The notes beneath the pieces are model-generated. The model was not told the origin of the DNA and searched no databases. It saw nothing but the letters and a program-made list of their open reading frames with translations. A stretch of DNA of 64,000 bases from Escherichia coli (GTDB taxonomy: Bacteria; Pseudomonadota; Gammaproteobacteria; Enterobacterales; Enterobacteriaceae). Shown one piece after another: positions 19,286 to 47,493 of the stretch. Each line of letters starts with the position of its first letter. Within the stretch, counting starts at the first letter, position 1. The stretch is taken from the NCBI RefSeq assembly GCF_048403405.1, contig NZ_CP183131.1; one strand, written 5' to 3'. A program made the translations under genes and the position numbers.

Positions 19286-19402
19286 TTAGGCGTTGTGATG
19301 CTTTTTTTCCTTCTGTTTCTCATGGTAGAGATACAGACTGCCGCCAGTGACGACAGTGAAAAAAATGAGCAACCCCAACATGCCTAATGTGAAAGCGTCC
19401 AT
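19286..19402 (-). CDS. unannotated small membrane protein (38 aa) MDAFTLGMLGLLIFFTVVTGGSLYLYHEKQKEKKHHNA
   Basis: AAGGGGG SD 5 nt upstream. One TM helix plus a basic tail. Below the ORF-track cutoff. Confidence 0.4.
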   Translation of the reverse strand: MDAFTLGMLGLLIFFTVVTGGSLYLYHEKQKEKKHHNA

Positions 19403-19411
19403 TTGACCCCC

Positions 19412-19651
19412 TTAGGAATTGCTGACCTTGGTTAAGATTATACCATAGATCCACAGGATAACCCCAATGACCAACACCAAACCGGCTTCTTTGACGGTTA
19501 TAGTGTCCCCAGATACAGCCAATCCTACAATACCGACACCGATGGCTGTTACGGCGACCTTACGCAGGTCTTCACCGATAGCTCCCAGAGTCTTCTTGTC
19601 AGGAGAGAAAAGACGCACAAACCACGTCTTAATACGCAAAAACTTTTTCAT
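19412..19651 (-). CDS. small membrane protein (79 aa)
   Basis: Start MKKFLRIK with a GGAGG SD. Two hydrophobic helices. Confidence 0.6.
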   Translation of the reverse strand: MKKFLRIKTWFVRLFSPDKKTLGAIGEDLRKVAVTAIGVGIVGLAVSGDTITVKEAGLVLVIGVILWIYGIILTKVSNS

Positions 19652-19719
19652 GATTACCTCCATAGTTGAAGAGGAGGCGAATCATGCCCGAGAGGGCATG
19701 AACACCCCCTCAGGGTTAA
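19652..19719 (-). promoter_or_regulatory. intercistronic RNA switch (CCC trigger / SD-mimic GAGGGGG / anti-SD CCUCCUC / SD GGAGG)
   Basis: Sense UUAACCCUGAGGGGGUGUUCAUGCCCUCUCGGGCAUGAUUCGCCUCCUCUUCAACUAUGGAGGUAAUCAUG. Confidence 0.55.
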
Positions 19720-19723
19720 AGTT

Positions 19724-20002
19724 TTAGGCAGACAAAGCTGTTGGCTTCGCCTTGTTCATCTTCATTGAGTTAATGATCTTCGTCGCTTCATCAGCAAACG
19801 GGCCAGTAACTTGGATAGGCTCCCTTCTTGCGAAGGAGGCTGTCACCATCATTCTCTGGCCGTGCATCAGATGACGATACCGAGACCGCATAAGCTCAAC
19901 GTAGGCCGCAGAGTCCCCCTCCCACCCCTCAGGGGGAGAAAAGGGGCACACCGCGTCGTTACCAGGCGTTGTATCAACCTTCGAGACATCAATGACGGCC
20001 AT
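19724..20002 (-). CDS. hypothetical protein (92 aa)
   Basis: Start MAVIDVSK overlaps the end of the primase gene. Confidence 0.55.
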   Translation of the reverse strand: MAVIDVSKVDTTPGNDAVCPFSPPEGWEGDSAAYVELMRSRYRHLMHGQRMMVTASFARREPIQVTGPFADEATKIINSMKMNKAKPTALSA

Positions 20003-21716
20003 ACTCAGCTCTCCTTCTCGCAATGAAATCGCGCAGGTAGCGAGCATTCGGGAAACCGAGGCTTCCCTGACTCATCAGGACATCGTTCCAGTCAATCCCT
20101 TTCGCTCTGGGCGGGATCGGGAGTTTAGGCAGCAGGACGTACACACGAATGCCGCGCTTCTCCAGCTTGGCTTTCAGCACGTTCGCTGACTTCTCACCAG
20201 TCACAGACTTATCTTTGTCAGCCCAGATCAGTACGGTGTGAACACCTTCTGGAACCTCGAAGGACTCCATCAGGGTCGCATTGACCGTTGACCAAACCGG
20301 GATTTGAGTGACTCGATAAGCTGACAGGGCTGTTTCCAGCCCTTCTGCAACACCCAGGATACCCTCAGTCGGTTCACCGAGGCGGATGGCCGCGCCATTG
20401 ACATCCAAACCGTCAGGAATGGGCATCATCTTCTTGGCGTTGCCGACCTTGGCTTTTTTACCGTTTTGGGTGAGATAGGTGCGGTGGAGCGTTACCAGGT
20501 TGCCTTCCACATCTCGGATAGCGCAGACGATAGCCGGGAATTTCCCAACTTCATTGCCATCTTCGTCGTAGTAGGCCATAGCCGGATTGAACCGCAGACA
20601 GTCTGTTTTTTCTACTTCATCAACCTTGAACAGAAGCTCGCGGTTTTTGAAGTACAGACGCATTGGCTCAGTCACATGACTGGAGAACGGCAAACACTCG
20701 TTCCATACCTTCTCGATTTTCTCACGGAGACGAGCACTGTAAGCGCGTTCGCGCTCCATTCTCTTCTCCATTTCTTCTTGGAGCTCAAGCAGCCAAGGCT
20801 TAGGTTGTTCACGAAACATCGGAACAACTTTCGGCTTGTTTTCGCTGCTTTGCTCTTCCGGTTGTGTGGCCGCATGTTGTACTTGCGGTGCCGGAGCTTC
20901 TACCGTGCGGTTGACCACAGGGGCCGACTCAACATGGTGACTCACCGGCTCAACACCACCGTTCGAGCGAGCGCGGAACTGCGTTACCGTAGCGCCGCGA
21001 CGTTCCACCAGCCAGGTGTTGCGATGCGTTTGCATAGGTTGTTCTCTCACAACATTCCCCTGCTCGTCCTTAACTTCAACGACGACAGTTACAGGCTCGC
21101 GCCCGAGGTTTGTCATGACGATCTCATCCCCATACTTGGCTTCACTTTCACCAATGGCTCTTTCAAGATCCACGCCCCAGATGGTGCGTTCCAAACCGCT
21201 CTTGTCACGGATGAAGGCAAAGTAGCTGAGCTCGTTGTCTTCGTTATGCTCATAAGGAGCTTTACCGTGGGCAATCAGAGTACCGGCAATGGATTTTTTA
21301 CGATTCTTGGAATCGAGAACCTTGTTATTCACCTTCATAGGCTCTTGCTGAACAGGCGCTTTGGCCTGGACAGGAGCTCGTGTCGGTGCAGCGGCTTGTT
21401 GATACTGGGGTTGCTCTTTCTCAACGCCCAGATAATCACCAACCTCGCTCAGGCACTGTTTAAAGTCCCAGTTATTGAGCCACATCAGCAGCTCAAAACC
21501 ATCATGATTGGCACCGCATGTATTGCATACGCCGCCACCAGTCAGGTGGGCATCCTTGAACAGTCGGAAGCCATCTTTCCCGCCGTGGATAGGACAAGAA
21601 ACATGACGACCAGGTTTACGGAGAGCTGGTTCAAGATGGGGCGCTAGGGCCGCCAGGATGAATAGCCAGTTTCCGTTTGCAGCTTCACGAACGGTGTCAG
21701 CTTTGTAGTAAGACAT
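19989..21716 (-). CDS. pri: DNA primase (zinc-binding + Toprim domains)
   Basis: CPIHGGKDGF..GGGVCNTCG zinc motif. Toprim motifs GVAEGLETALS and IWADKDKS. ATG at 21716 follows AAGGAG. Confidence 0.85.
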   Translation of the reverse strand: MSYYKADTVREAANGNWLFILAALAPHLEPALRKPGRHVSCPIHGGKDGFRLFKDAHLTGGGVCNTCGANHDGFELLMWLNNWDFKQCLSEVGDYLGVEKEQPQYQQAAAPTRAPVQAKAPVQQEPMKVNNKVLDSKNRKKSIAGTLIAHGKAPYEHNEDNELSYFAFIRDKSGLERTIWGVDLERAIGESEAKYGDEIVMTNLGREPVTVVVEVKDEQGNVVREQPMQTHRNTWLVERRGATVTQFRARSNGGVEPVSHHVESAPVVNRTVEAPAPQVQHAATQPEEQSSENKPKVVPMFREQPKPWLLELQEEMEKRMERERAYSARLREKIEKVWNECLPFSSHVTEPMRLYFKNRELLFKVDEVEKTDCLRFNPAMAYYDEDGNEVGKFPAIVCAIRDVEGNLVTLHRTYLTQNGKKAKVGNAKKMMPIPDGLDVNGAAIRLGEPTEGILGVAEGLETALSAYRVTQIPVWSTVNATLMESFEVPEGVHTVLIWADKDKSVTGEKSANVLKAKLEKRGIRVYVLLPKLPIPPRAKGIDWNDVLMSQGSLGFPNARYLRDFIARRRAEYGRH

Positions 21717-21893
21717 AGGTTTTCTCCTTAGCGTGAACCCCAGCATCGAGGCTTCCTTAAACCCCCGTCGCCAGGGTTTTAAGGAAACCCCGACACCGGG
21801 AGAATGTGCCAAGGAGGCTCCCCAGCCGGGGAGAACTCCCCGGCGAGGGGTTTAAAAAGGTCGCCCCCGAAACGGAGGCGAATTTTGTGAATA

Positions 21894-22280
21894 TCACAAG
21901 CACAAATGAGTGCCATCTTCCGAGGCCATCATGATTGTGACATCTGCGGTTACAGGATCTGACTTAATCACAACCTCAGTGGGTTTGAAAAAGCCATCTA
22001 CAGTGGGCATGGGGTAATAAAGACGAATCTTTCCCCAATTCTTGTTGTCGGTAAAAGCGACCTTTGTTTGAGCAACACAAAGCTGCAAAAACATGAAAAG
22101 GAAGTCTTCTACCGAGTGCTTACCATCTGCACCAAATACTCCATCGACAATTGCCGGGGTCACTGCCACATTGGTCAGGAAACCAGCTTGTTTACCGATG
22201 GAAGATTGGTCCACCAGCAGACCATCATTGATGGCTTGTTGACGGATTTGGGCGAGGTCCAATTTAGCTACTTGGTTCAT
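21894..22280 (-). CDS. hypothetical protein (128 aa)
   Basis: ORF with a GGAG SD. No family recognised. Confidence 0.65.
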   Translation of the reverse strand: MNQVAKLDLAQIRQQAINDGLLVDQSSIGKQAGFLTNVAVTPAIVDGVFGADGKHSVEDFLFMFLQLCVAQTKVAFTDNKNWGKIRLYYPMPTVDGFFKPTEVVIKSDPVTADVTIMMASEDGTHLCL

Positions 22281-22344
22281 AAGGTGTACTCCAAAGTTAA
22301 TGGGTACACCTACCCCGTGCGGGGAAGTGTACCCGCATGGGTTA
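22281..22344 (-). promoter_or_regulatory. intercistronic RNA switch (arms GGGUACAC / GUGUACCC / GUACACC)
   Basis: Sense UAACCCAUGCGGGUACACUUCCCCGCACGGGGUAGGUGUACCCAUUAACUUUGGAGUACACCUUAUG. Confidence 0.6.
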
Positions 22345-22381
22345 TTGAAAGGTCACGGCCAAAGCCGAGCTTTAAGGTTCC

Positions 22382-22537
22382 GAGTTTTACGCTGGCTGAA
22401 TGCGCCAAAGAACGGTCGGAGGAAACGAGTCAGCGACACGCTTCACATTCGCGTAAAGAGTGTCCTTAAAGACACGCTCTAAGCGACGACCACCTTGACG
22501 ATAAACCAACTTAAAGTCTTGGAATTTGTTCATGGAT
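22382..22537 (-). CDS. unannotated small basic protein (51 aa) MNKFQDFKLVYRQGGRRLERVFKD..
   Basis: GGAGGTATCC precedes the ATG. First cistron after leader element H. Confidence 0.4.
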
Positions 22538-22610
22538 ACCTCCAGAAATAACGGGAGGTATCTCCAGCAGGAGATAGACTCCCGCAGGGATTAATAAATT
22601 AACGTTAATT

Positions 22611-22669
22611 TGCTGTTTGTTTTTGGCGACCAGCTATCGCACGCTTTCGCCCTCAGGGAGGACAAAATC
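22611..22669 (-). promoter_or_regulatory. P1-P2 leader element, copy H (ops-like loop)
   Basis: Sense GAUUUUGUCCUC-CCU-GAGGGCGAAAGCGUGCGA-UAGCUGG-UCGCCAAAAACAAACAGCA. Confidence 0.65.
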
Positions 22670-22737
22670 TGCTTACTGATGGCTTAACCATGAGTAAGAA
22701 GACTTGGGAAGTAAAGCAGGGGTTTCCCCCTGCCTTG

Positions 22738-23589
22738 TTATGCCGCTTTGAGGTGGCGAGAGAAAAAGTCCCTGGTTTGCTGGATAGCGCCCCGGAGAAG
22801 TTCTCGTCTGTAGCCAGCGTAGCTCTTGTCATCACTGGCAACGGTCAAGCCGTGCAGACTCTCTTCACCCAGGACAATCTCGTTTTCACGAGAGAGTACC
22901 TCAACACGTAGGCCAAGCACTCGCTCTTTCCCTTCCAGGATAGAACAAATTGTTTGGTCTCTTACTTCGTCATCCCAGTGGCCCATATCGAAATCCCGCT
23001 CAGGGAGTTCAGTAACACGCACCAGGTAGTTTTCAGTGGCCCGTTCCCAAACCACTTCATCTTCGCATGGAGAGGCCTCGATCAGCGAGTACCCGTCCGC
23101 TTCGAGCTTCTTGGAAAGACTTTTTACATCATCCGCCAGCTCCAGCACAAAGCGTTCCCAGAGGTCTTGCCAGCGCTCGACCATATCCTGGTTAATCCCT
23201 TCAATGCCGGTGCCAATCATGGAATCATCATCAGGGAAGATCCCTGTGAAGTCCACGTTGTCGTCGATGTTCATGCAGTTCCAATGGCTGTAGTGATGCC
23301 CGTGACTATTCCGAGTAATGGACAGGTCACAGGAACCATATTCGCGGAGGACAGAAAGCATATTCTCAATGTCTTTCTGTGCCATCAGGTTCTTCACGCG
23401 GCTGACAGCATCCACTTGGCCGGGCTCAGTGCTGAATAGGCGATTCATGAGAGCTTTGACGTCATCAACGCTCAAATCCCCGTAGAAGGCTACGCCATCC
23501 CCCTGGCAGTATCCGAGACTGTACTCAATCGTCAGATCATCCGGGTATCCACACTTAACCAGTTCGTTTTGAAAATGCTGTTTAATCAT
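22738..23589 (-). CDS. hypothetical protein (283 aa)
   Basis: Start MIKQHFQ with an AAGGAG SD. No family recognised. Confidence 0.7.
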   Translation of the reverse strand: MIKQHFQNELVKCGYPDDLTIEYSLGYCQGDGVAFYGDLSVDDVKALMNRLFSTEPGQVDAVSRVKNLMAQKDIENMLSVLREYGSCDLSITRNSHGHHYSHWNCMNIDDNVDFTGIFPDDDSMIGTGIEGINQDMVERWQDLWERFVLELADDVKSLSKKLEADGYSLIEASPCEDEVVWERATENYLVRVTELPERDFDMGHWDDEVRDQTICSILEGKERVLGLRVEVLSRENEIVLGEESLHGLTVASDDKSYAGYRRELLRGAIQQTRDFFSRHLKAA

Positions 23590-23666
23590 TGGTATCTCCT
23601 TAATTTCAGAGGGAGACACCATCCCCTCAGGGACCGATGTCCCCCGTGGGGTTAATGTTTGGGTTA
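23590..23666 (-). promoter_or_regulatory. intercistronic RNA switch (SD GGAGAUACC pairs with GGUGUCUCC)
   Basis: Sense UAACCCAAACAUUAACCCCACGGGGGACAUCGGUCCCUGAGGGGAUGGUGUCUCCCUCUGAAAUUAAGGAGAUACCAAUG. The upstream stop is the first UAA. Confidence 0.6.
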
Positions 23667-24221
23667 AGAAGCCTTGCGGTTTAATTCAGTATCAAATCGA
23701 GGACCTTTGAGAACCGCAGTTTTCATAACCTCGAAGTTTCTTGGGTAACGCAGCTTTGAAACTGCGCCAGCTCGGATGTCGGCAGCCTCACTTGGAGAGA
23801 CTAGCCTTAACCCTTCGCTGGTTTCAGCGTAGAACCAACCGGCATAACGCTCATAGGCATTCTGCTGGTACTGTTCAGTCGCCATATTCTTCCGGATCGC
23901 CTCTGTTAAGGCCTCAACAACACCGTCATCTTTCGTGATGATGTTGAAAACATGAGAGACGGTCAGGAAGTTCCCAAAGAAGCAGGCTGCCCCAAGCCAA
24001 GGCTGGAACATTTCGCCATTTCGCCCCGTCCTCACCATTGGTTCAAACGGGTATGGGCGATAACAGTGATACTGCTCAAACATCGGGTCAAGAACGTTGT
24101 CACCCAGGACATCCAGTAAAGTCTGAATGCTGTCCGGGTCTTGGCCTGCCCACTTACTCCCATTGCTGAGAATCAGTGTTTTACCGTCAGTACGCTCCAG
24201 AGCTTGTTCAAAGTTAGACAT
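23664..24221 (-). CDS. hypothetical protein (185 aa)
   Basis: Start MSNFEQALE after AAAGGAAUGCACU. No family recognised. Confidence 0.65.
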   Translation of the reverse strand: MSNFEQALERTDGKTLILSNGSKWAGQDPDSIQTLLDVLGDNVLDPMFEQYHCYRPYPFEPMVRTGRNGEMFQPWLGAACFFGNFLTVSHVFNIITKDDGVVEALTEAIRKNMATEQYQQNAYERYAGWFYAETSEGLRLVSPSEAADIRAGAVSKLRYPRNFEVMKTAVLKGPRFDTELNRKAS

Positions 24222-24294
24222 AGTGCATTCCTTTTGGTTAGGACGCACCACACCCTCTCGGGATGATGCGCCCGAGTGGGTTAGTTGAGAAGGC

Positions 24295-24513
24295 TTAGCC
24301 GTCAAGTCCGTAAATTACGGCGGAGCCGGGCTCCATCTCGACAACTTGTGCGCTTCCTTCTTCTATCAGCTCCTGCATGTAACCAGACTCAGCATCCGGA
24401 TTACGTTCGCAGTGTTCGTCCCAGCGTTTCAAAAGCCCTTCTGTGGCTTGTCCGTGGGTCTCACCAAGGCCGATAAACTCATAGTGTCCTGTGTTTACGA
24501 TGATCACCACCAT
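24295..24513 (-). CDS. hypothetical protein (72 aa)
   Basis: Start MVVIIVNTG after AGGAGAG. Confidence 0.55.
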   Translation of the reverse strand: MVVIIVNTGHYEFIGLGETHGQATEGLLKRWDEHCERNPDAESGYMQELIEEGSAQVVEMEPGSAVIYGLDG

Positions 24514-24526
24514 AGCTAGTGCTCTC

Positions 24527-24796
24527 CTACAGGTCACTTGGTACATACAGGTCATCTTTGATGGCAGAAAAATCGACAGGAGACTGGTCCCCATAGGTTC
24601 GATTCACGCCACCAGCATCATCGACACTGACAAAAACCGTGCGGAGTAAACCGCTGGGCTTTGCAGGGTAAACGATGCTGACATGCTGACCTTTGTACTG
24701 TTCTGACAAAGTGCTTTGAAGCTCATCAACCGAACGGAATTTCCGGTCGCGGCCAAAGTCCTTAATCTTGATGTCGCCAGGGATTGGATTAGTCAT
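24527..24796 (-). CDS. hypothetical protein (89 aa)
   Basis: Its ATG overlaps the stop of the HD-domain gene (GATGACTAA). Confidence 0.6.
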   Translation of the reverse strand: MTNPIPGDIKIKDFGRDRKFRSVDELQSTLSEQYKGQHVSIVYPAKPSGLLRTVFVSVDDAGGVNRTYGDQSPVDFSAIKDDLYVPSDL

Positions 24797-25394
24797 CGTT
24801 ACCCCCTGCCAGCAGTTTATCTACTGAATGGCCGAGTCCGTTACCAAACCATTTGTCCAGAGCGTCGATTTCCGGGAAGTCCGATTTCACCTGAGCAACA
24901 ACACGTTCCATTTTGCTGAGAGCATCCTGGAACTCAAGGCCATTACCTGCGGCCACCTCAAGTTTGCACTTGATGTAAGCGGAGTAGGTATCACAGGCCT
25001 TAACCAGTGATTGTTCATAGCCACCGGGAGCGAAGGCTATGGCGACTGCATCCTGGAGTTCTTCGGGAAGAGTCTGGATGAGTTTGTCCTCTGCGGCCTT
25101 TTCCAGTCGTTCAAACTCACGCTGCAAAACAGCGTTTGCTTTCTTGACCGGTGTTACAACATCCGAACAGAGAACCTCGGCTGCATCATGCAACGAAGCA
25201 TGAGCAAGCATGACTGCCAGATCCACCGACTTCCCTTGCTGAATGGCAATATTGCCAGCCAGGTAGGAAAGCAGGGTAACAACAGCGCTGTGTTCCAACA
25301 CAGACTCCGGTTGAACAGAGTGCATCAGTGACCAGCGTTTGATCAGGCGTTGGCGCAAGGCCAGAGCTAGAAAGCCGAAATTTGAATTAGACAT
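24789..25394 (-). CDS. HD-domain phosphohydrolase (YfbR-like 5'-deoxynucleotidase)
   Basis: H..HD..D pattern: EHSAVVTLL, SLHDAAEVLCSDVVTPVK. Confidence 0.75.
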   Translation of the reverse strand: MSNSNFGFLALALRQRLIKRWSLMHSVQPESVLEHSAVVTLLSYLAGNIAIQQGKSVDLAVMLAHASLHDAAEVLCSDVVTPVKKANAVLQREFERLEKAAEDKLIQTLPEELQDAVAIAFAPGGYEQSLVKACDTYSAYIKCKLEVAAGNGLEFQDALSKMERVVAQVKSDFPEIDALDKWFGNGLGHSVDKLLAGGNDD

Positions 25395-25465
25395 AGTGCC
25401 TCCAAAATTGGTTGGAGGTACACCAAAGCCGACCGGGCCTTGGTGTACCCGGTTGGGTTACTTAG

Positions 25466-25669
25466 TTATCTCGGGTCAAGCTGCTTAGCTATAGCGAGTA
25501 AAAACGGATGGAATGGATGATCTTGCGGGACACCCCCAACAAGCTCACGGGCTAAACCGACTGAGTTTGTAGCCAACACCTCTTTGACGGCCAGAATGAT
25601 TTCATTGTCGATTTCATCCTGGGTCTTTCGTTGTTGGTCCACCAGCCGACTTAACTTGTCTAGGCTCAT
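25466..25669 (-). CDS. hypothetical protein (67 aa)
   Basis: First cistron of unit G. Confidence 0.55.
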   Translation of the reverse strand: MSLDKLSRLVDQQRKTQDEIDNEIILAVKEVLATNSVGLARELVGGVPQDHPFHPFLLAIAKQLDPR

Positions 25670-25732
25670 GCTTCTCTCCTTTGTTTGTGGGAGAGAACCC
25701 AGGAGGGGTTTCCTCCCGAGGGGTTAGGTTAT

Positions 25733-25773
25733 TGCTGTTTTGGGCCAGCTACCGTTATAGCCAGCAAGCGCTG
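25733..25773 (-). promoter_or_regulatory. P1-P2 leader element, copy G (degenerate, carries CGGTAGC)
   Basis: Sense CAGC-GCUU-GCUGGCUAUAACGGUAGCUGGCCCAAAACAGCA. Confidence 0.45.
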
Positions 25774-25810
25774 ACAATGAACAAAGAGTATGACAGCCAC
25801 CTAAAAGGGT

Positions 25811-25840
25811 AAAACGCTGTAATTGCCCTTTTGGGGTGCA
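25811..25840 (-). promoter_or_regulatory. AcaCD/SetCD-type activator box candidate (unit G promoter)
   Basis: Sense TGCACCCCAAAAGGGCAATTACAGCG. The -10-like CATACT lies 31 nt downstream. Confidence 0.45.
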
Positions 25841-25846
25841 AAAGAA

Positions 25847-25872
25847 AAAGCCCTCCCGAAGGAGGGCTTTTT
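25847..25872 (-). terminator. rho-independent terminator after the 817-aa gene
   Basis: Sense AAAAGCCCTCC-TTCG-GGAGGGCTTTTTCTTTT. Confidence 0.85.
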
Positions 25873-28324: not shown

Positions 28325-28474
28325 AGGGCCTCCTGGATTAGCAGGGTGCCCATCCCTTCCGGGAAAGCACCCCGGTAGGGTTAAAATTGAATCCTGGCTA
28401 TCAGACCTGAATGAATCGCCACGGGTTTAACAGACACCTCAGAGTCATTTAAGATGGCTTAAAGAGAGGTGCCC

Positions 28475-28753: not shown

Positions 28754-28809
28754 GGTACGCCTTTATCCGTGACAACACCTGTTGCTGGCCTGTTCGCCTG
28801 CTCTGTCGG

Positions 28810-29622: not shown

Positions 29623-29643
29623 ATTATCCGTGGCGATTCAGAA

Positions 29644-30091: not shown

Positions 30092-30098
30092 GATAATT

Positions 30099-34948: not shown

Positions 34949-34952
34949 AGGA

Positions 34953-37594: not shown

Positions 37595-37684
37595 AGGGAC
37601 TCCTTATTGCGATTGCGGAGCCCCGTCCCCTCAGGGCTATCGGAGCCCCATAGGGTTAATTAGGGTTAATGGTTGAACGGCGAT

Positions 37685-38224: not shown

Positions 38225-38294
38225 GTGTGCTCCTTAAAGTAACTTGGGCACACAGAGCCTGTCAGGCGCAGTGCGCCCTTAGGCTGAGGTTGAA

Positions 38295-38352
38295 TGCTGT
38301 TTGTTTTTGGCGACCAGCTATCGCACGTTTCGCCCTCAGAGAGGACAAAATT
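38295..38352 (-). promoter_or_regulatory. P1-P2 leader element, copy D
   Basis: Sense AAUUUUGUCCUC-UCU-GAGGGCGAAACGUGCGA-UAGCUGG-UCGCCAAAAACAAACAGCA. Confidence 0.65.
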
Positions 38353-38444
38353 CACTTTCTCAGCAACCCTCAATGAAGGCCTCTGAGAAAGTGGGAGGGT
38401 ATTCCCTCCTCACTTTGATTGTTCCACGAGAGCTGTGTGAACAG

Positions 38445-38473
38445 GAACGCTCAAACTGCCCTTTTCGGGTGCA
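38445..38473 (-). promoter_or_regulatory. AcaCD/SetCD-type activator box candidate (unit D promoter)
   Basis: Sense TGCACCCGAAAAGGGCAGTTTGAGCG. Confidence 0.45.
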
Positions 38474-38488
38474 AAGCTCAAAGACGCA

Positions 38489-38824
38489 TCAACTGCCCCG
38501 TCTTTTCAGTTCTTCGACCAGATGTTCAGGCACCTTACTCGCAGTACAGGCCAGCAATACATCGAGGCCTACCGGCTTGTGAAAGCGCTTATTTGACCAG
38601 GAATCGCCAACTGATGACTTTGCCCAGTCGATTGCTTGCCCAAGACTGTGGAACTGCCGCCTGCCTGTGTATCCCATACGACTATCCAAAGTAACACCCT
38701 GGAACAGTCTCCAGTACATCGGAGGAATGCGCTTAGCAAGCAGTAAAAAAGGCGTCTCCGGCACTGTAGCCCTTCTACCTTTGTTCCGATGATACAAATC
38801 CAAAGATGAATGGAATTGGTTCAT
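38489..38824 (-). CDS. hypothetical protein (111 aa)
   Basis: GGAGAG SD preceded by a terminator-like hairpin. Confidence 0.6.
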   Translation of the reverse strand: MNQFHSSLDLYHRNKGRRATVPETPFLLLAKRIPPMYWRLFQGVTLDSRMGYTGRRQFHSLGQAIDWAKSSVGDSWSNKRFHKPVGLDVLLACTASKVPEHLVEELKRRGS

Positions 38825-38885
38825 AGACTCTCCAAATAAAAACGGCCACCCCCGAAGGGATAGCCGTTTGTCGTTTCACTTCCTG

Positions 38886-40682: not shown

Positions 40683-40766
40683 ATCTTTTCTCCTGGTAGG
40701 GAAGGAGATAGTCCACCCCTGGAGGGAATGGCTATCCCCTCCGGGTCGGTTTAGTTGAAGTGACTA

Positions 40767-42044
40767 TTAGAAGAAATAGTCGCCATCGTCGTCAGTTTTA
40801 GGCAGCTCCTGGTTGAGAGGCTCCTCTGTCGGCTCCTCTTGGACAGGCTCTTGCTCTACCGGAGTTTCCTCAGGCAAAACCGGCTCATCCTCAACATCAA
40901 CGCGCTCTTCTCGAACCACATCACCGGCATTGGATTCATCTTCCGATTCACCCTCGCCTCGTTCTGCAAAACTCTTGAAGAAGTTGTCGATGTCTTCATC
41001 CAGGTCAACAGCGTTACCACCGCTGTTAGTCTGTTCTGATTGAACAGATTCAGTACCACCTACCTGTTGCTGCTTGGTTTCGCCACCCTCTGTTGCAGGG
41101 ATAAGCTCACCGGCTTTATCGCTTTTCTGTTCGGCCTTTTCATCTTTAGAACGGTCCCCCATCTGGGCTCCCGAACCGCCAATGTCATTAGCCATGCCCT
41201 CTACAGTAATCGAGCCATTGGCATACTGCTCGATGCGGTCCCTCTCGCTCATGATCAGCACTGCGGCCACGACCTGATAAAAGAAAGGCGCAACGATGTT
41301 TCGGCCATCGGCATGTTGCTCGTATCCCCGGAGGGTTTGGTCGAGCAGCTTGACCAGAGGGTTAAAAGCGCTGTTCAGGAAGCTAAGCCCATCCACCTTG
41401 TCGCGGATGTTACGGAGTGTCTGCCGAGTAGTGACCGCACATTGGTCTCGACCGGCCAAACGTTCCATATAGAACTTATTCGCTTCCTGAACCACTTCGG
41501 AGATGAGATCGTCACCCAAGCGCTCAACCTTGCGGTTAAGGCGTTTGGCGTTGGCCTCATCTTCGTTCACAGGCTGGATCATGAACACCTGGTACTCAAA
41601 GCCAATCCGCTCCTCGACCGTTTCCTTTGGAAGGGCTCCGGCACGGATAGCTCGTTCATACTCAGGGTTCTCCTGACACCATTCATCCACGGCTTTGTTG
41701 TAACCTTTGATGAAATCCTGTTTCAGTTGGTTAAACTGAAAGTTTATGTCATTCAGCTTGTTACAGATTTCATCGGTCTTGCTGACGGGTACGGCAAATC
41801 CGTTCATGAACGGCATACCGAATTTCAGCAGGAGGCGACGAGTTTCTGTTTTCAGGCGATGAAAGCCTTTCAGCTTAGCCGGATCACAGATCTTCTTACT
41901 TCCCAGTTGAGCTACTTTCTCAGGTGGAATTTCACCACCCTCGCCCAGCTTGAGATCAGATGCAGACAAACGGGTTTGTCCACTCCAGATGTCAAAGTCT
42001 ACGTGGATAACACAGAGGCTTTGTAGATGGTTCACTTTAGTCAT
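40767..42044 (-). CDS. hypothetical protein (425 aa) with long acidic tail ending DDDGDYFF
   Basis: Start MTKVNHLQ after GGAGUGCAUC. First cistron of unit C. Confidence 0.7.
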   Translation of the reverse strand: MTKVNHLQSLCVIHVDFDIWSGQTRLSASDLKLGEGGEIPPEKVAQLGSKKICDPAKLKGFHRLKTETRRLLLKFGMPFMNGFAVPVSKTDEICNKLNDINFQFNQLKQDFIKGYNKAVDEWCQENPEYERAIRAGALPKETVEERIGFEYQVFMIQPVNEDEANAKRLNRKVERLGDDLISEVVQEANKFYMERLAGRDQCAVTTRQTLRNIRDKVDGLSFLNSAFNPLVKLLDQTLRGYEQHADGRNIVAPFFYQVVAAVLIMSERDRIEQYANGSITVEGMANDIGGSGAQMGDRSKDEKAEQKSDKAGELIPATEGGETKQQQVGGTESVQSEQTNSGGNAVDLDEDIDNFFKSFAERGEGESEDESNAGDVVREERVDVEDEPVLPEETPVEQEPVQEEPTEEPLNQELPKTDDDGDYFF

Positions 42045-42126
42045 GATGCACTCCAAAAAGTTGGGGGCGCACCACGTCCCGAACCGGGCGGATGCGCCCG
42101 GTTGGGCTAGTAAATTAACGTTAATT

Positions 42127-42185
42127 TGCTGTTTGTTTTTGGCGACCAGCTATCGCACTTTTCGCTCTCCGAAGAGAACAAAATC
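42127..42185 (-). promoter_or_regulatory. P1-P2 leader element, copy C (UUCG tetraloop in P1)
   Basis: Sense GAUUUUGUUCUC-UUCG-GAGAGCGAAAAGUGCGA-UAGCUGG-UCGCCAAAAACAAACAGCA. Confidence 0.65.
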
Positions 42186-42243
42186 TTGCTTTCCGTTGGA
42201 GACTCCCAGAATCCCCAAGGGAAAGCGGGGGAAAATCCCCCAC

Positions 42244-43254
42244 TCACCAGTAGAACGTCTCTACTTCTTCCGGCAAATCATCAAGAGGAGCAAGCACGTC
42301 CTCATCAACAATGTACCGTGGCTTCACAGAGCCAGTAACCGTTACACGGCACCGCTCTGATGACTTCTCTCTGTACTGGTCAACATCCTCAGGCTTCACG
42401 CCTGACGCCTTATCAGCCAACAGCTTTTTGTAGTCTACCCGGCCAGCCGCTTTGTATCTCGTTACCATCACACCGCAGTAGTCGGCATGGAAGTATTCCC
42501 CCATGAGGGACTTCATGGTGTCGAGATGAGGCTTTTGCCTTTCTTGAAGCTCAGACAGTCGCTGTTTCAGCTCCTGAATCTCAGCATCATAGAGGCGGTA
42601 TTCCTCAGCAGCAGCAATCCAACGGTTGACCTCTTCACCTTGCGGTATGTACAGGTCTCTCTCTGGATCTTTGTCGGGCTCCTTCTTGTCTACTACCTGT
42701 TGCCAGAACTTTTTAGCCTCGGCCAAGATTTCTTGAATCATGGCTTCGTCTCGGAGTATTGGAAACTCCTGAATCTGACCTTCAAAGTAGAAGACTAACC
42801 AGCCTTGCTTGGCCCCCGTTACCAGGAGCTGGTGTTGCACCTGCGGGTAATAAAGCTGGTATGCCTTGCTGTTTGCTTTCTCAGCACAAACATCTTCCCA
42901 GACAGTCGCACTCGGGCTTTTCAGCTCGACGGGCTCCCCGTTATCTCTCAGGCCATCCAGGGAGGCCCTCATGAGCGGGTATTGAACCGATTCGACACAG
43001 GCGGGGAGCAGCATGTCATCATACTTCTCCTCGAAAGCGCGTCTTGCAGCATCTTCGTTTTCTATCCCCCGGCGAACCAGCGGATTAAGACTCAGATCGA
43101 CTTCACGCGCATACCCAGTCTTCTCGGCCCACAGTCTCCATCGTGTTTTGTACGGAGACCGATTGAGCAGGATAGCGGCGTCAGTGGCTGTTACACCTTG
43201 ACGCCGCCAATCAAGCCAATCTTCCTCTCGTTGCGATAGGTTGACTATTTTCAT
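42244..43254 (-). CDS. exo: YqaJ/lambda-Exo-type recombination exonuclease
   Basis: N-terminus QREEDWLDWRRQGVTATDAAILL..SPYKT is typical of YqaJ-family nucleases. Adjacent to bet. Confidence 0.85.
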   Translation of the reverse strand: MKIVNLSQREEDWLDWRRQGVTATDAAILLNRSPYKTRWRLWAEKTGYAREVDLSLNPLVRRGIENEDAARRAFEEKYDDMLLPACVESVQYPLMRASLDGLRDNGEPVELKSPSATVWEDVCAEKANSKAYQLYYPQVQHQLLVTGAKQGWLVFYFEGQIQEFPILRDEAMIQEILAEAKKFWQQVVDKKEPDKDPERDLYIPQGEEVNRWIAAAEEYRLYDAEIQELKQRLSELQERQKPHLDTMKSLMGEYFHADYCGVMVTRYKAAGRVDYKKLLADKASGVKPEDVDQYREKSSERCRVTVTGSVKPRYIVDEDVLAPLDDLPEEVETFYW

Positions 43255-43319
43255 GGACCTCTCTCCAATGGTTAGGAGGGAGATCTCCCCCAGCGGGGGA
43301 GTCCCCCCCGTTGGGGTTA
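43255..43319 (-). promoter_or_regulatory. intercistronic RNA switch between bet and exo
   Basis: Sense UAACCCCAACGGGGGGGACUCCCCCGCUGGGGGAGAUCUCCCUCCUAACCAUUGGAGAGAGGUCCAUG. The bet stop is the UAA fused to CCCC. Confidence 0.55.
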
Positions 43320-44306
43320 GTAGTAACTGCCTTCCGCGCCCTCCTCTTCTGTAACAGGGATCATGTCCTCGTCACTCAAAGGCGGCATTTCTTCGGCACC
43401 AGGTTCAGCATTTGCAGAACCACCAGCGGCGGACTCTTGCTCGTGCGCTTCCTGGTAGTCAGGTTTCGGAGGCTCCATTTGATCCATCTCCTTGTCACGA
43501 AGGAATTGAGTCGCATATTGCAGTTCCGAACCTTCATACCGTCCCTTCACATACTCATGCGCCGCAGACCATGCGTTTTCAGCAATGGCGCGATTTGCGA
43601 GTTTGGTTAGGATCGGGTCAAGCTCTTTGTGCTCAATAGCCAAAGGCTCTTGGCTTTGAACTTGAGATGGTGAAGGGAGATTGGCAATAGCCGGGTTAAT
43701 GGCCGATGCCTGCTCCATTTCACGGATGCGTTCAGCTTCATCCTGGTCATAAATACCAGAGAAACCAAATGCGACACGAGAACACTGGATCAGCGACTTG
43801 TGCCGGAGTTGACGCTTGGTGTGCGTTTGCCAGGGGCCATCAACAGTGTAAGCACCATTGCGACCTTGACCCTGAAACGGTTCACGGTACACCTCATCAA
43901 TGAACTCCTTGATGCGGATAGGGCGAGATCTGTCCTTACGGTAAATCACGCATTCAATCCACTCAGGGCAGTCAACTTTCGCCCCCTGCATTCTGACCAT
44001 CTTGTCCGAATACACGAACTCGACGCCATCATACTGGGGATGCTCGTTGATGATGCGGCTCCAACCATCAACACCTACTACCGGAATGATCCCATTTTGC
44101 TTGTCAGGAAACGCATAGATTTCCCGAGTGAAAGGGTTCAAACCGTACTGTTCAGCCACGATCAGGAGCGTCATCATCTGCTCATCGGTCGGGGCACTTC
44201 CATCTCGCTGCTTGAATGCGGTCGCCTTCAAAGTTTCATAGAACTTTCGGGTGTCCACGCCAAACCGGCTTGCGATACGGGTTACAAGAGATTTGTTATC
44301 AGACAT
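43317..44306 (-). CDS. bet: lambda Bet-family single-strand annealing protein
   Basis: LIVAEQYGLNPFTREIYAFPDKQNGIIPVVGVDGWSRIINE is almost identical in pattern to lambda Bet. Confidence 0.92.
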   Translation of the reverse strand: MSDNKSLVTRIASRFGVDTRKFYETLKATAFKQRDGSAPTDEQMMTLLIVAEQYGLNPFTREIYAFPDKQNGIIPVVGVDGWSRIINEHPQYDGVEFVYSDKMVRMQGAKVDCPEWIECVIYRKDRSRPIRIKEFIDEVYREPFQGQGRNGAYTVDGPWQTHTKRQLRHKSLIQCSRVAFGFSGIYDQDEAERIREMEQASAINPAIANLPSPSQVQSQEPLAIEHKELDPILTKLANRAIAENAWSAAHEYVKGRYEGSELQYATQFLRDKEMDQMEPPKPDYQEAHEQESAAGGSANAEPGAEEMPPLSDEDMIPVTEEEGAEGSYY

Positions 44307-44400
44307 GGTGTTTCTCCAATTCACGAATGAACGGTTTGAGGACACCATGACCCCCTCGGGGCATGAGTGCCCCCGTGGGGTTTAGTAAGAGTTGGCGGTG

Positions 44401-44928
44401 TTACCCGCCAGCCAAGTGGTGCAGCCGCATGAACGGGATGTCATCATCCCAGCCATCAGGAGCGGGACCATAGCCTCCGCCCATACCACCTTGCGGTGCT
44501 GATTGCTGCACAGGAGCAGATTGCGTACCGGCTCCTGTACGTTGCCCTTTTTGGGGCGCTGCACGTTGAGAGTTGTCCTGAGGTGCATTTCCACGACCAC
44601 CAAGCATCTGCATTTCAACGCAGTGTACTTCGGTGGTGTAGCGCTCGATTTGTTGGCTGTCAGTCCACTTCCGGGTGCGGTTGCTCCCTTCGAGATAGAC
44701 TTGGGAGCCCTTTTTCAGGTACTCACCAGCGACTTCTGCCAAACGACCTTTAAGCACAATACGGTGCCACTCAGTATGCTCTCTTTGCTCGCCAGACTGC
44801 TTATCGCGCCACGTATCCGTTGTTGCAACGTTGAAGTTGGCAACGGCAGTTCCGCTTGGCATGTAGCGAATTTCCGGGTCAGAACCGAGATTACCGACCA
44901 GAATTACTTTGTTGACGCCTTTAGACAT
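44401..44928 (-). CDS. ssb: single-stranded DNA-binding protein with internal DDDIPF and 9-aa C-terminal extension
   Basis: OB-fold N-terminus [12 protein letters not shown]. Gly/Gln-rich linker. ..[16 protein letters not shown] stop. Confidence 0.9.
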
Positions 44929-44994
44929 CATGACCTCCAAGTTATTTGGAGAGGGCCAACGCCCCTTTCGGGGAGCAAGCCCCCGTAAGGGTTA
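44929..44994 (-). promoter_or_regulatory. intercistronic RNA switch upstream of ssb (GAAA loop; CUCCAA/UUGGAG SD hairpin)
   Basis: Sense UAACCCUUACGGGGGCUUGCUCCCCGAAAGGGGCGUUGGCCCUCUCCAAAUAACUUGGAGGUCAUGAUG. Confidence 0.55.
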
Positions 44995-45900
44995 AAAAAA
45001 GTGATCCTCTTGTTCGGCGTCGATCTCTGCCAGGCGAATCAGCTCAGATACAAGGCCAAGCCTTTCTGCATCTGCTCTTACTTCGTCGTAGCTGAAACCA
45101 AACCGTTCAATGAGGGGTTTTAGTGAATCAAAACGCTCGTAGTCGAAGGTATCACCCTGTTCATCACAGAATGCCACCAGCGGCTTCTCTACGTTTGAAA
45201 AGTCATCCGCGAAACGCTGTTGCAGGTAAACCAACATCAGCAGGGGTTTGTGACCATGTTCCGGGCGGAGTTCACCAGCGCCTTCCAGCGTAGCTGGATG
45301 GATAGTGTTTTCGCCTAGTCCAGTGCTAACCCCAAGCTCATAACCGCTGTCAGTACGCATCAGCACACTGGGTAGCAAGTCATTTGAGCCTTCGCTCCGA
45401 GCAACCTCAAAGCCGATTAAACCGGCTCCTTTGGCAAAAACCCCAGCAACAAAACCTTTGAAGAGGTTTATGTCACCTGGAGGTAACTCAGAGGGCGGAG
45501 ATAACAGCCAGTTGAGAGATCCCAAGCTGGCTGTTTGTCCGGCTGAAACATTCCCCCCTTCCAGCACCGTCTGTGTCTCTGCGTTTACCAGCACCTCATC
45601 CAGAAAGGTGTACCCCTGGCTGAGAAACTGTGACACATACTGGCTTTCTTTGTCCTTGTAGGACATTGGGATCGTGTCTGGGCCGTTAGCTTCAAAAGGT
45701 CCTTCGAGCTTTGTCTCAGACCAATTTTCAGCTTTCCCATCAGTGACGGTTCGGCGTAGCTCGACCATCGTGAATTGGCCTGGCTCCGAGGAGCTGGGCT
45801 CCCGGAGCAACTTGTAGCCAATGAAGACTTCTATTGTGGTTTCGTCATTGCCCCACTCTTTAGCAGTGTAACGACGGCACAAACAGTCATTTTTCTTCAT
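44992..45900 (-). CDS. hypothetical protein (302 aa), C-terminus ..AEQEDHFF
   Basis: Lies between the AAA+ gene and ssb. AAGGGG SD. Confidence 0.7.
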   Translation of the reverse strand: MKKNDCLCRRYTAKEWGNDETTIEVFIGYKLLREPSSSEPGQFTMVELRRTVTDGKAENWSETKLEGPFEANGPDTIPMSYKDKESQYVSQFLSQGYTFLDEVLVNAETQTVLEGGNVSAGQTASLGSLNWLLSPPSELPPGDINLFKGFVAGVFAKGAGLIGFEVARSEGSNDLLPSVLMRTDSGYELGVSTGLGENTIHPATLEGAGELRPEHGHKPLLMLVYLQQRFADDFSNVEKPLVAFCDEQGDTFDYERFDSLKPLIERFGFSYDEVRADAERLGLVSELIRLAEIDAEQEDHFF

Positions 45901-45910
45901 GCGTCACCCC

Positions 45911-46879
45911 TTAGCGCCATTGGTCCCCGAACACATCCTTCGCAACACGCAGGATGGCTTCACGCTCCTCTTTGGCCGCACGGATAAGCAGAGCTTGATC
46001 CAGGGCGTATTCAAGAGCATTTGGGGCACCACGGAACGCTAGAGACAGTTTCGCCCAACGCACCAACGTCCGAGTGGACATGGTGACGCTGATCTGACCA
46101 TCTTCACCGTTTTCGCCAAGAAACAGTTTGCGGACCTGATTAGCAATCCGAACCATTCCCTTCCGCACATTTTCCGGAAGTTTCGGAGTAACACGGCCAA
46201 GAATGCTGAGTTCAGCTTCCTCATCCGCATACCCTACTTTGGTGAAACGATAGCGATCCATAGCTGCGAGGTTCTGCATCATCACCCCCTGGTACAAACC
46301 AGAAGCATCACCGGACCCCGTAGAGTTACCAGTAACGACCACACGAAACATCGGGTGCGGCTTGATGATTTCCCCGCCATTCTGAGCGATCACAAGGGGA
46401 CGCCCTTCAAGGACATCGTTGAGACCAGCCAGCTCGGCAGGGTCGGCCAAATCCACCTCGTTGATGAGGAGCAGATGACCTTCACGCATAGCGACTGCCA
46501 GAGGTCCATACATGAACTTCATGACAGGTGGTTGACCAGGCTTTTCCGCGACCAGAGCGTGATGTCCAATCAGATCTGTCAGCTCCATCCGCCCGTGGGC
46601 AGTGATTTGCTGAACAGGCCAGTTGAGACGACCAGCGATCTCGGTGATACCTGAGGTTTTGCCAGACCCGGTAGGGCCGGTTACGAACAATGCGTCACCG
46701 CCAGGCTCTTTGAGATAGGCCAAGACCTCTCGCAGAAACTCTTTGCGGAAAACGTAGTTGGTATCAGTGGCAGGGATGAAAGGGTTTGAACCGTCAGCGT
46801 AGCCGATGGCCGTTACCTTCTCCGGAATGCTGGGCATACCGAAAACCTTGCTTACTGAGAATTGAGAGTATTGAGACAT
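45911..46879 (-). CDS. CobS/MoxR-like AAA+ ATPase
   Basis: Walker A VTGPTGSGKTS and Walker B LLLINEVDLA. Confidence 0.85.
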   Translation of the reverse strand: MSQYSQFSVSKVFGMPSIPEKVTAIGYADGSNPFIPATDTNYVFRKEFLREVLAYLKEPGGDALFVTGPTGSGKTSGITEIAGRLNWPVQQITAHGRMELTDLIGHHALVAEKPGQPPVMKFMYGPLAVAMREGHLLLINEVDLADPAELAGLNDVLEGRPLVIAQNGGEIIKPHPMFRVVVTGNSTGSGDASGLYQGVMMQNLAAMDRYRFTKVGYADEEAELSILGRVTPKLPENVRKGMVRIANQVRKLFLGENGEDGQISVTMSTRTLVRWAKLSLAFRGAPNALEYALDQALLIRAAKEEREAILRVAKDVFGDQWR

Positions 46880-46945
46880 AGGTGCGCTCCTATTGTGACA
46901 GGCGCACCACGTCCCGAACCGGGCGGATGCGCCCGGTTGGGCTAG
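46880..46945 (-). promoter_or_regulatory. leader RNA switch (GGCGCAUC / GGUGCGCC / GCGCACC after SD)
   Basis: Sense AACCGGGCGCAUCCGCCCGGUUCGGGACGUGGUGCGCCUGUCACAAUAGGAGCGCACCUAUG. Confidence 0.6.
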
Positions 46946-46961
46946 TAAATTAACGTTAATT

Positions 46962-47020
46962 TGCTGTTTGTTTTTGGCGACCAGCTATCGCACTTTTCGC
47001 TCTCCGAAGAGAACAAAATC
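46962..47020 (-). promoter_or_regulatory. P1-P2 leader element, copy B (identical to copy C)
   Basis: Part of the 121-bp perfect repeat 46901-47021 = 42066-42186. Confidence 0.65.
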
Positions 47021-47098
47021 TGCTTACTGATGGTATTCACCATGAGTAAGAAGACTTTTAAGGAGCGAGGAGAGTAGCCTCTCCTGGAGGCCACTCCC

Positions 47099-47284
47099 TC
47101 AATGGACGAACATCACCACATCGTCGTTTTGACCAATGACCCCGGTTTCTTTGGCCCACTTCACTGCTTCACTGTGCGCCTGGTAGGAGCTGGAATACAG
47201 TTTCGGATCAAATTTCACCTCGCGTCCATCAGCCAGATAGATGATGCCTGCGTGATCGTCGTAAACATGAAGATTCTGTTGCAT
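47099..47284 (-). CDS. hypothetical protein (61 aa)
   Basis: Start MQQNLHVYDD after GGGGGA. The ORF-track start at 47350 is less likely. Confidence 0.5.
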   Translation of the reverse strand: MQQNLHVYDDHAGIIYLADGREVKFDPKLYSSSYQAHSEAVKWAKETGVIGQNDDVVMFVH

Positions 47285-47400
47285 TCGACATTCCCCCTGT
47301 AGCTTGTCGTCAAAGCCAACTGACACCAGAAGACTTTGAGGACAAGCCACAGAGGCTTGACCAGAAAGAGAGGGGTTGCCCCCTCCCTTTGCGTTGACTA

Positions 47401-47493
47401 TCAGCAGTAACCGAACGATTCAGCGATTCTCACGAAAGGACGAGAGATTGCCCAACCAGTAGGGATACACAAAGCGATGATAGCGATTTCCAT
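47401..47493 (-). CDS. unannotated small hydrophobic protein (30 aa) MEIAIIALCIPTGWAISRPFVRIAESFGYC
   Basis: AGGAGCAACAUC precedes the AUG, directly after a hairpin. Confidence 0.4.
   Translation of the reverse strand: MEIAIIALCIPTGWAISRPFVRIAESFGYC

Follow-up and report, generated by a model that had tools for sequence, protein, structure and literature searches.

We have good confidence that three small open reading frames in an IncC (A/C2) plasmid backbone, ORF1, ORF2 and ORF3, are real protein-coding genes, co-transcribed with their neighbours and not part of toxin–antitoxin modules. Taken singly, this is almost certain for ORF2, very probable for ORF1 and likely for ORF3. All three lie on the minus strand of the window, the whole 64,000-nucleotide stretch of Escherichia coli contig NZ_CP183131.1 that we analysed, which is 100% identical to many sequenced plasmids, and they bear no relation to one another. 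They would represent three unrelated small-protein genes within a block under AcaCD control, where this conjugative plasmid carries accessory genes and genes for host-defence evasion.

The initial annotation had placed ORF1 and ORF3 exactly where we find them (Table 1): the former encodes 38 aa, including a single hydrophobic stretch and a tail of basic residues, the latter a hydrophobic peptide of 30 aa (GRAVY 1.0). The SDs it reported are also there, with GGGGG, GGAGG and AGGAG 5, 5 and 7 nt before the ATG of ORF1, ORF2 and ORF3, respectively. For ORF2, it was right about the basic character of the product (pI 10.6) and the position as first cistron after the leader; its limits, 22382..22537 with 51 aa, had to be corrected, as this interval contains three stops when translated on the minus strand and the true ORF encodes 48 aa. 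ORF1 and ORF2 fall under the cutoff of the ORF track used there, yet both are annotated in RefSeq, whose CDSs occupy precisely these places in a plasmid 100% identical to the window, and in pVCR94, where length, order and neighbours agree with vcrx125 (93091..93207, 117 nt) and vcrx120 (89960..90106, 147 nt), respectively. The vcrx numbering rests on gene lengths, order and offsets in pVCR94 Dataset S1. In the papers on pVCR94 (Carraro et al. 2014, PMC4207636), both appear only as genes to which no function is assigned.

Table 1. Window coordinates of the three small ORFs and of the elements around them.
Feature	Coordinates	Strand	Description
Intrinsic terminator	19239..19262	-	closes the operon just past ORF1
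ORF1 = vcrx125 (WP_000338626.1)	19286..19402	-	38-aa predicted single-pass membrane peptide, C-terminal tail basic; final cistron in the primase operon
SD (AAGGGGG) of ORF1	19407..19414	-	overlaps the TAA stop of vcrx124; GGGGG 5 nt before ATG
vcrx124 (legacy name 'permease')	19412..19663	-	79/83-aa two-TM protein, presumed partner of ORF1
ORF2 = vcrx120 (WP_001032042.1)	22387..22533	-	48-aa basic (pI 10.6) soluble protein, predicted ββαβ fold
ORF2 initiation hairpin	22535..22564	-	AGAUACCUCC..GGAGGUAUC; SD (GGAGG) in the 3' arm; closes beside AUG
Repeated leader upstream of ORF2 ('leader H')	22565..22700	-	one of 7 copies in the window
GC-rich hairpin	47369..47385	-	~15 nt past the ORF3 stop codon
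ORF3	47401..47493	-	hydrophobic peptide of 30 aa, located between vcrx087 and vcrx088; without annotation in pVCR94 or RefSeq
ORF3 initiation region	47494..47547	-	AGGAG SD (47501..47505) and hairpin GAUGUUGC..GCAACAUC beside AUG

Conservation and selection on the encoded peptides

A small ORF behind an SD is not remarkable in itself. Counting ORFs of 28-60 aa that begin at ATG behind an SD-like tetramer, we find 29 in the window versus 35.6±6.1 in shuffled sequence, which is not above chance; only comparative evidence makes the three ORFs credible.

This evidence is provided by relatives that are ~72-78% identical in DNA. The initial annotation had named loss of the reading frame in related plasmids as the outcome that would speak against it; instead, frame, start, SD and stop are all kept for each ORF. 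Synonymous changes are also in frame-specific excess in each ORF, with pN/pS of 0.10-0.25, so that the selection looked for in relatives does act on the protein. Between IncC and Edwardsiella, ORF1 gives a pN/pS of 0.14 (Sd 20/23.3, Nd 10/84.7, p=1.3e-11); ORF2, compared between IncC and TARA marine elements, gives 0.10 (Sd 23/32.7, Nd 8/111.3, p=1.4e-12); and ORF3, between IncC and A. salmonicida, 0.25 (Sd 13.7/20.8, Nd 11.3/69.2, p=2e-5). Variable sites lie mostly at codon position 3, and the remaining frames carry no such synonymous bias except for the expected antisense echo, whose frame contains stops. ORF3 is the weakest case: its codon-position periodicity reaches p≈0.06-0.09, its pN/pS rises to 0.47 in one comparison, and the non-coding hairpins flanking it are conserved about as well as the ORF itself.

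An Rfam scan of the whole window matched no family, and Pfam, NCBIfam and PHROGs scans of the three peptides and their neighbours returned nothing above threshold; the best match of ORF1, Pfam FixQ/CcoQ (PF05545), reaches 13.9 bits where the cut-off is 29 (E=0.051). Fold searches gave weak, generic matches only. Whatever we say of function is therefore something we infer, and the specific role proposed for each ORF is tentative. An exact protein look-up matched ORF2 and ORF3 and left ORF1 without a match; the 90% clusters were contaminated by unrelated long proteins. Scanning genome contigs with Vcrx124 and metagenomes with Vcrx087 added few extra lineages.

Operon context and control by AcaCD

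ORF1 (MDAFTLGMLGLLIFFTVVTGGSLYLYHEKQKEKKHHNA) would be an inner-membrane peptide made from the cistron that ends the primase operon (vcrx122-125); its Kyte-Doolittle maximum is 2.41 over residues 4-18. The overlap of its SD with the vcrx124 stop suggests translational coupling of the two genes. Six lineages keep the SD, the terminator and a spacing of 0-13 nt between the upstream stop and the ORF1 start, an equivalent GGCCAGC..GCTGGCC-T7 hairpin being found in all lineages, and in A. veronii and Marinobacterium the vcrx124/ORF1 junction is an ATGA overlap. Orthologues occur in IncA, Edwardsiella, Shewanella and A. veronii pHX3, with a positional analogue in Marinobacterium. Vcrx125 may act as a small subunit or partner of the two-TM Vcrx124. 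A resistance island splits vcrx124 in about half of IncC plasmids, so the pair is not needed for plasmid maintenance or transfer; ORF1 is intact even where the island cuts its neighbour.

The initial annotation's reading in terms of small membrane peptides does not fit ORF2 (MNKFQDFKLVYRQGGRRLERVFKDTLYANVKRVADSFPPTVLWRIQPA), whose product is instead a soluble basic protein (GRAVY -0.55) with a folded model: AlphaFold2 reaches a pLDDT of 92.8 from only 3 sequences. Remote family members of 53-61 aa have a common motif, DT..N..R.A.SFP....W.I. The initiation hairpin exists in compensatory forms in Marinobacterium (AUGCCUUCC/GGAGGCAU) and L033 (GGUGUACUC/GAGUAUACC); because the SD is held in this conserved hairpin, translation of ORF2 is probably gated. 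ORF2 and ORF3 have this hairpin-embedded SD design in common with the bona fide neighbours vcrx087, 089, 094 and 121.

ORF2 is always the first cistron behind an rptI-type leader, though the leaders differ between elements, and most likely its leader in the window corresponds to an rptI repeat of Roy et al. 2020 (PMC7498323). Like the rptI repeats, it is one of the repeated intergenic elements of the block, and its distance of ~23.7 kb to the vcrx089 leader, allowing for a length difference of ~650 bp between pVCR94 and the window, fits the rptIb-rptIf deletion described there. That work treats the repeats as Bet/Exo repair substrates and gives them no role in first-cistron expression. We considered two other identities for the leaders and rejected both. 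The AcaCD boxes are a different repeat, at 52721, 38451 and 25818, whose spacing matches Table S3; constitutive promoters are rejected because the genes downstream are silent in ΔacaCD. IncA, Edwardsiella and A. veronii plasmids retain the leader and lack ORF2, which is therefore not needed for plasmid maintenance or transfer.

ORF3 (MEIAIIALCIPTGWAISRPFVRIAESFGYC, GRAVY 1.01) would be encoded within a vcrx087→vcrx088→hde mRNA. At ~80% identity, its initiation region is a paralogous copy of the vcrx087 one, and the 5' arm of its initiation hairpin is common with the vcrx087 terminator-like hairpin (47515..47547). The ORF is intact with 30 codons in IncC, Xenorhabdus and four Aeromonas lineages, and has 33 codons in IncA via an in-frame 9-nt duplication; frameshifting variation in a T-run sits just outside it.

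Published RNA-seq values, given here as wild type / ΔacaCD / AcaCD-induced, are 1649 / 12 / 10485 for vcrx120, i.e. very high with AcaCD on, and 19 / 0 / 611 for vcrx125. From ΔacaCD to AcaCD-induced cells, the neighbours of ORF3 rise from 5 to 3445 (vcrx087) and from 9 to 11025 (vcrx088). The published tables list no AcaCD site or transcription start between these two genes, and vcrx087, vcrx089 and bet have been placed on one mRNA by RT-PCR. ORF3 itself is thus presumably transcribed with them, and we infer that all three ORFs are translated. In published work, vcrx120 is also one of the two genes most down-regulated under SgaCD overexpression. Once AcaCD is active, or when the plasmid enters a new host, its product may bind a nucleic acid or some host factor.

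Alternative readings

That the ORFs are chance frames, conserved through selection on RNA or DNA structure only, is highly improbable. SD-preceded small ORFs are equally common in shuffled sequence, and folding is far better in these regions than in shuffles (z -5.3 and -5.0); structure alone, however, does not produce three-base periodicity or a frame-specific synonymous excess, and the A. veronii homologue of ORF1, at only 48% protein identity, yet retains length, topology and tail. For ORF1 and ORF2, this reading is already largely refuted. ORF2 and/or ORF3 might alternatively be regulatory uORFs or leader peptides, for which the act of translation matters and the peptide has no function. 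Both do lie in highly structured leaders between terminator-like hairpins: ORF3 stops shortly before a GC hairpin and one arm of its initiation hairpin also belongs to the terminator-like hairpin ahead of it, while ORF2 invariably comes first after a leader. We consider this unlikely, since an attenuation-type leader peptide varies freely, whereas pN/pS is 0.10 for ORF2, along its whole length and together with a confident folded model, and 0.25 for ORF3, which is under purifying selection as well, though more weakly. Moreover, 107 nt with independent hairpins separate ORF2 from the next start. An equally improbable account makes ORF3 a decaying, non-functional relic of a partial tandem duplication of the vcrx087 5' end. 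The resemblance of the two initiation regions is what one would then expect, and the peptides begin similarly, with M-E-I-A-I-I in ORF3 and M-H-I-I-T-F in Vcrx087; furthermore, ORF3 is unannotated, absent from pVPH1 and missing, with the whole ORF3/vcrx088 segment, from the E. piscicida plasmid. A relic would nevertheless gain frameshifts or stops, and in every lineage sampled the 30-codon frame, ATG, SD spacing and TGA are intact, even at synonymous divergence >1; the sole indel is in frame, and at least 80% of ORF3 is covered in 796 of 797 matching plasmid records.

Finally, the initial annotation had suggested toxins, and ORF1 and/or ORF3 could be membrane peptides akin to type I toxins, or plasmid-borne addiction or killer peptides of another kind. 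The size of ORF1, its single hydrophobic helix and its charged tail resemble Hok/Ldr/Fst-type toxins, both peptides are hydrophobic, and ORF1 survives where the island cuts its upstream gene. We nevertheless regard this as very unlikely. ORF1 has no transcription unit of its own, as a type I system would: it is a last cistron, starting 0-13 nt after vcrx124 in six lineages and overlapping it in two. Crude promoter scans found no sigma-70-like site on either strand of 18700-22800, and in 46850-48250 one sense site (47927..47898, minus) and none on the antisense (plus) strand, i.e. no antisense promoter-like site near any ORF in these regions. Expression that depends on AcaCD and is essentially zero without it is the opposite of a constitutive addiction module, and the pVCR94 study names another locus, vcrx027/028, as a putative toxin–antitoxin system.

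Implications and relation to known systems

Over half of the backbone genes of IncC plasmids, themselves major carriers of multidrug resistance, are without a known function. Protein-level selection on all three ORFs justifies their inclusion in deletion or Tn-seq screens of plasmid establishment and host-defence evasion, and the entry of ORF3 in annotations. In practice the gain is modest: annotation already covered two of the three, and in the cases examined neither maintenance nor transfer of the plasmid requires any of them.

Some further proposals are more speculative and, taken together, distinctly unlikely: that Vcrx120 founds an undescribed basic ββαβ family tied to the rptI leader, or that ORF3 works together with Vcrx087. 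Vcrx120 would then target the conserved leader hairpin (loop TAGCTGG) in trans and bring about antitermination, or activate translation, throughout the accessory-gene block; alternatively, it would neutralise some host factor as the plasmid enters. Since the Vcrx087 C-terminus is a mimic of the FtsZ C-terminal peptide, ORF3 and Vcrx087 could form a small module, one that could modulate host cell division during conjugation; a PDB sequence search with the Vcrx087 tail found nothing.

Among known systems, ORF1 and ORF3 recall Hok, Ldr, TisB, Fst and Ibs in being small and hydrophobic, ORF1 also in its charged tail. They would differ from these toxins by the absence, in our crude scans, of a promoter-like site for an antisense RNA, by the lack of an independent transcription unit, by starting almost directly behind the upstream gene and by activator-dependent expression. 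The nearest systems to Vcrx120 may include the small phage inhibitors T4 Dmd, phi29-family p56 and T7 Gp2, built of a three-stranded sheet and one helix. ORF1, with fewer than 50 aa, a single predicted membrane pass and a place at the operon end directly after a membrane-protein gene, is reminiscent of CydX/CydAB, AcrZ/AcrB and KdpF/KdpABC. As with such partners, its pairing with vcrx124 is kept across lineages; unlike in those systems, the partner Vcrx124 is itself tiny, and ORF1 has no sequence relation to their families.

Three small protein genes of the IncC backbone

Hundreds of IncC (A/C2) conjugative plasmids, from hosts that include Klebsiella, Salmonella, Escherichia and Vibrio, match segments 18700-23700 and 46800-48000 of the window at 100% identity. 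IncC is among the best-studied families of resistance plasmids. For regulation, the reference plasmid is pVCR94 (Carraro et al. 2014, PMC4207636), whose vcrx gene numbers we use.

The translations initially given for ORF1 and ORF3 are reproduced exactly, while the limits proposed for ORF2 enclose three stops and are corrected in the table. The Shine-Dalgarno (SD) sequences reported before the ORFs are genuine: GGGGG, GGAGG and AGGAG, respectively, lying 5-7 nt before the ATG. Counting all ORFs of 28-60 aa that begin with ATG and follow an SD gives 29 in the window versus 35.6±6.1 in shuffled sequence; as there is no excess, an SD with a small ORF carries no evidential weight by itself. Checking conservation in relatives, as the initial annotation advised, revealed protein-level selection on all three ORFs.

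Coordinates of the small ORFs and associated elements (window positions)
Feature	Position	Strand	Description
ORF1 (vcrx125)	19286..19402	minus	38 aa; RefSeq WP_000338626.1; 117 nt in pVCR94
vcrx124 split	~19527		
ORF2 (vcrx120)	22387..22533	minus	48 aa, pI 10.6; RefSeq WP_001032042.1; 147 nt in pVCR94
ORF3	47401..47493	minus	30 aa
Inverted repeat AAGCC-TCTGT-GGCTT	47340..47362		downstream of ORF3
vcrx087	47588..47908	minus	106-aa membrane protein
Leader copies (7)	22606, 30094, 33876, 38290, 42122, 46957, 48000	minus	each precedes a gene or operon in the block
Repeat family D4, TG..GCCCTTTTGGGG..	52721, 38451, 25818, weakly 22736		AcaCD box repeat
Initiation-hairpin starts	vcrx087 47908, ORF3 47493, vcrx089 46879, vcrx094 ~42044, vcrx120 22533, vcrx121 22280		

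ORF1 and ORF2, the counterparts of vcrx125 and vcrx120

Upstream of ORF1 lies the two-TM gene vcrx124 (legacy name 'permease'), whose stop codon is overlapped by the ORF1 SD; a strong intrinsic terminator follows ORF1. This three-part order of genes and terminator is shared by IncA, an Edwardsiella plasmid, a Shewanella contig, A. veronii pHX3 and a Marinobacterium element. In pHX3 and Marinobacterium the peptide has diverged (48% identity and unalignable, respectively) and an ATGA joins its start to the upstream stop. Compared with its Edwardsiella copy (72% DNA identity), ORF1 shows 20 synonymous differences per 23.3 sites and 10 non-synonymous ones per 84.7 (p=1.3e-11), and its frame is the only one with this bias and without stops. 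The pVCR94 authors predicted an operon from vcrx122 (primase) to vcrx125, and their RNA-seq gives vcrx125 values of 19, 0 and 611 in the wild type, ΔacaCD and upon induction of the activator AcaCD (PMC4207636). We regard ORF1 as a genuine membrane peptide; where it lies and the conservation of the pair suggest joint production with Vcrx124 and a role as its partner. Roughly half of IncC records carry a split vcrx124, so that the pair is dispensable for the plasmid; in the window's plasmid the gene is uninterrupted. In the single record inspected, the insert is a resistance island, probably ARI-A, that lies upstream of rhs and carries mer genes together with IS4321; ORF1 is left intact there.

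ORF2 has homologues in Shewanella, Photorhabdus, Marinobacterium and marine metagenomic elements. Synonymous sites are saturated and the protein is nearly unchanged (pN/pS 0.10, p=1.4e-12), with 32 of 52 variable columns at codon position 3. Searching 1.8 billion representative proteins with a profile added just four small relatives, which share the motif DT..N..R.A.SFP....W.I, and modelling yields a confident predicted fold for Vcrx120.

ORF2 is an accessory gene, matched in 772 plasmid records versus 820-947 for the nearby ORF1 and vcrx124, and absent from IncA, Edwardsiella and A. veronii plasmids. The junction is identical in IncA and the Edwardsiella plasmid (window 22387..22600 compared with L012 7550-7810 and L010 1820-2090), where ~225 bp comprising the 3' part of the upstream repeated leader and vcrx120 are missing; in IncC this segment is flanked by ..CGTTAA and ..CCTTAA, which suggests a microhomology deletion or an exchange between leader copies. 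In marine elements, the homologue is placed behind another leader and precedes a vcrx098-like gene; in pAQU2 and locus L033 it sits between exo and a DUF3150 gene, with two tandem paralogues in L033. A hairpin closing next to the AUG holds the ORF2 SD in its 3' arm, and the homologues carry compensatory variants of it.

For vcrx120 the wild-type, ΔacaCD and AcaCD-induced RNA values of pVCR94 are 1649, 12 and 10485 (PMC4207636), and vcrx119 and vcrx120 are the genes most reduced by SgaCD overexpression (Durand et al. 2021). Across the parts of pVCR94 Dataset S1 covered here, the highest AcaCD-induced values belong to vcrx088 (61 aa, 11025) and vcrx120 (48 aa), roughly threefold above their neighbours; RNA processing, or stable segments flanked by hairpins, may account for this.

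ORF3 and its neighbour vcrx087

ORF3 is annotated neither in RefSeq nor in pVCR94, which lists nothing between vcrx087 and vcrx088; a few GenBank and UniProt entries do contain it. It matches 797 plasmid records, 796 of them with at least 80% coverage. Both IncC alleles, Xenorhabdus and four Aeromonas plasmid lineages retain the 30-codon frame with its ATG and TGA, and the SD spacing; in IncA 9 nt are duplicated in frame, and a frameshifting change in T-run length falls just upstream, outside the ORF. The A. salmonicida comparison (72% DNA identity) yields a pN/pS of 0.25 (p=2e-5), the bias being confined to the ORF3 frame; other pairs give 0.18-0.49. Codon-position periodicity is weak (p about 0.06-0.09) and the flanking hairpins are about as conserved, which makes ORF3 the least certain of the three. 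We consider it quite probable that ORF3 is translated as a gene. Its initiation region and that of vcrx087 are paralogous copies (repeat family D11), and one E. piscicida plasmid is devoid of the ORF3/vcrx088 segment. The inverted repeat downstream is conserved even in that plasmid and in pVPH1, both without ORF3.

We infer that ORF3 is transcribed within an mRNA spanning its neighbours, because vcrx087 and vcrx088 are both strongly AcaCD-induced in pVCR94 (PMC4207636), the pVCR94 lists place neither an AcaCD site nor a transcription start between them, and RT-PCR places vcrx087, vcrx089 and bet on one mRNA (Roy et al. 2020, PMC7498323).

The C-terminal end of Vcrx087, QEPDWDYLEIPTYLRKG, closely matches KEPDYLDIPAFLRK, the conserved tail peptide of E. 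coli FtsZ on which FtsA, ZipA and MinC dock (pairwise BLASTP E=3e-4); homologues with as little as 57% identity keep the motif residues unchanged. Judged from its sequence, Vcrx087 may be a membrane-tethered FtsZ-tail mimic, a likeness of which we found no mention in the IncC plasmid literature surveyed.

Small membrane peptides on plasmids are often toxins or regulators, as the initial annotation noted, and the toxin reading retains a small probability here. Against it, none of the three ORFs has its own transcription unit, no antisense promoter-like site was found near them, every measured expression is activator-dependent, and ORF2 is not hydrophobic.

Repeated leaders and initiation hairpins

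The leader before ORF2 is one of the seven copies in the window, a repeat that has a 4-bp stem around the invariant loop TAGCTGG, followed by an invariant AAACAAACAGCA. The stem exists in at least six Watson-Crick versions with compensatory changes and is therefore a nucleic-acid hairpin under selection; GCGGTAGC appears to resemble the RfaH ops element. AcaCD boxes are a different repeat, D4, whose spacing matches pVCR94 Table S3 and whose sites coincide with the boxes of traN, vcrx098 and vcrx114. A role as constitutive promoters is likewise ruled out, because genes downstream are silent without AcaCD in the pVCR94 RNA-seq data; the leaders are thus RNA or ssDNA elements. From their spacing, they are most likely the rptI repeats used by Bet/Exo to repair CRISPR-Cas breaks (Roy et al. 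2020, PMC7498323).

A recurrent design marks initiation in the block: a hairpin of 7-9 bp, closing 0-2 nt ahead of the AUG, carries the SD either in the loop or in the 3' arm. Stem sequences differ between genes and lineages, and the design suggests shared translational control; Roy et al. noted such a hairpin only for vcrx089 (PMC7498323).

The three small protein genes are a real but ordinary finding, for which functional models are inferences: ORF1 and ORF2 were already annotated and have transcript support, whereas ORF3 is usually unannotated. What is added to the known IncC system is the protein-level selection on all three, the confident predicted fold and small family of Vcrx120, its presence/absence pattern and relocation between leaders, and the case for adding ORF3 to annotations.
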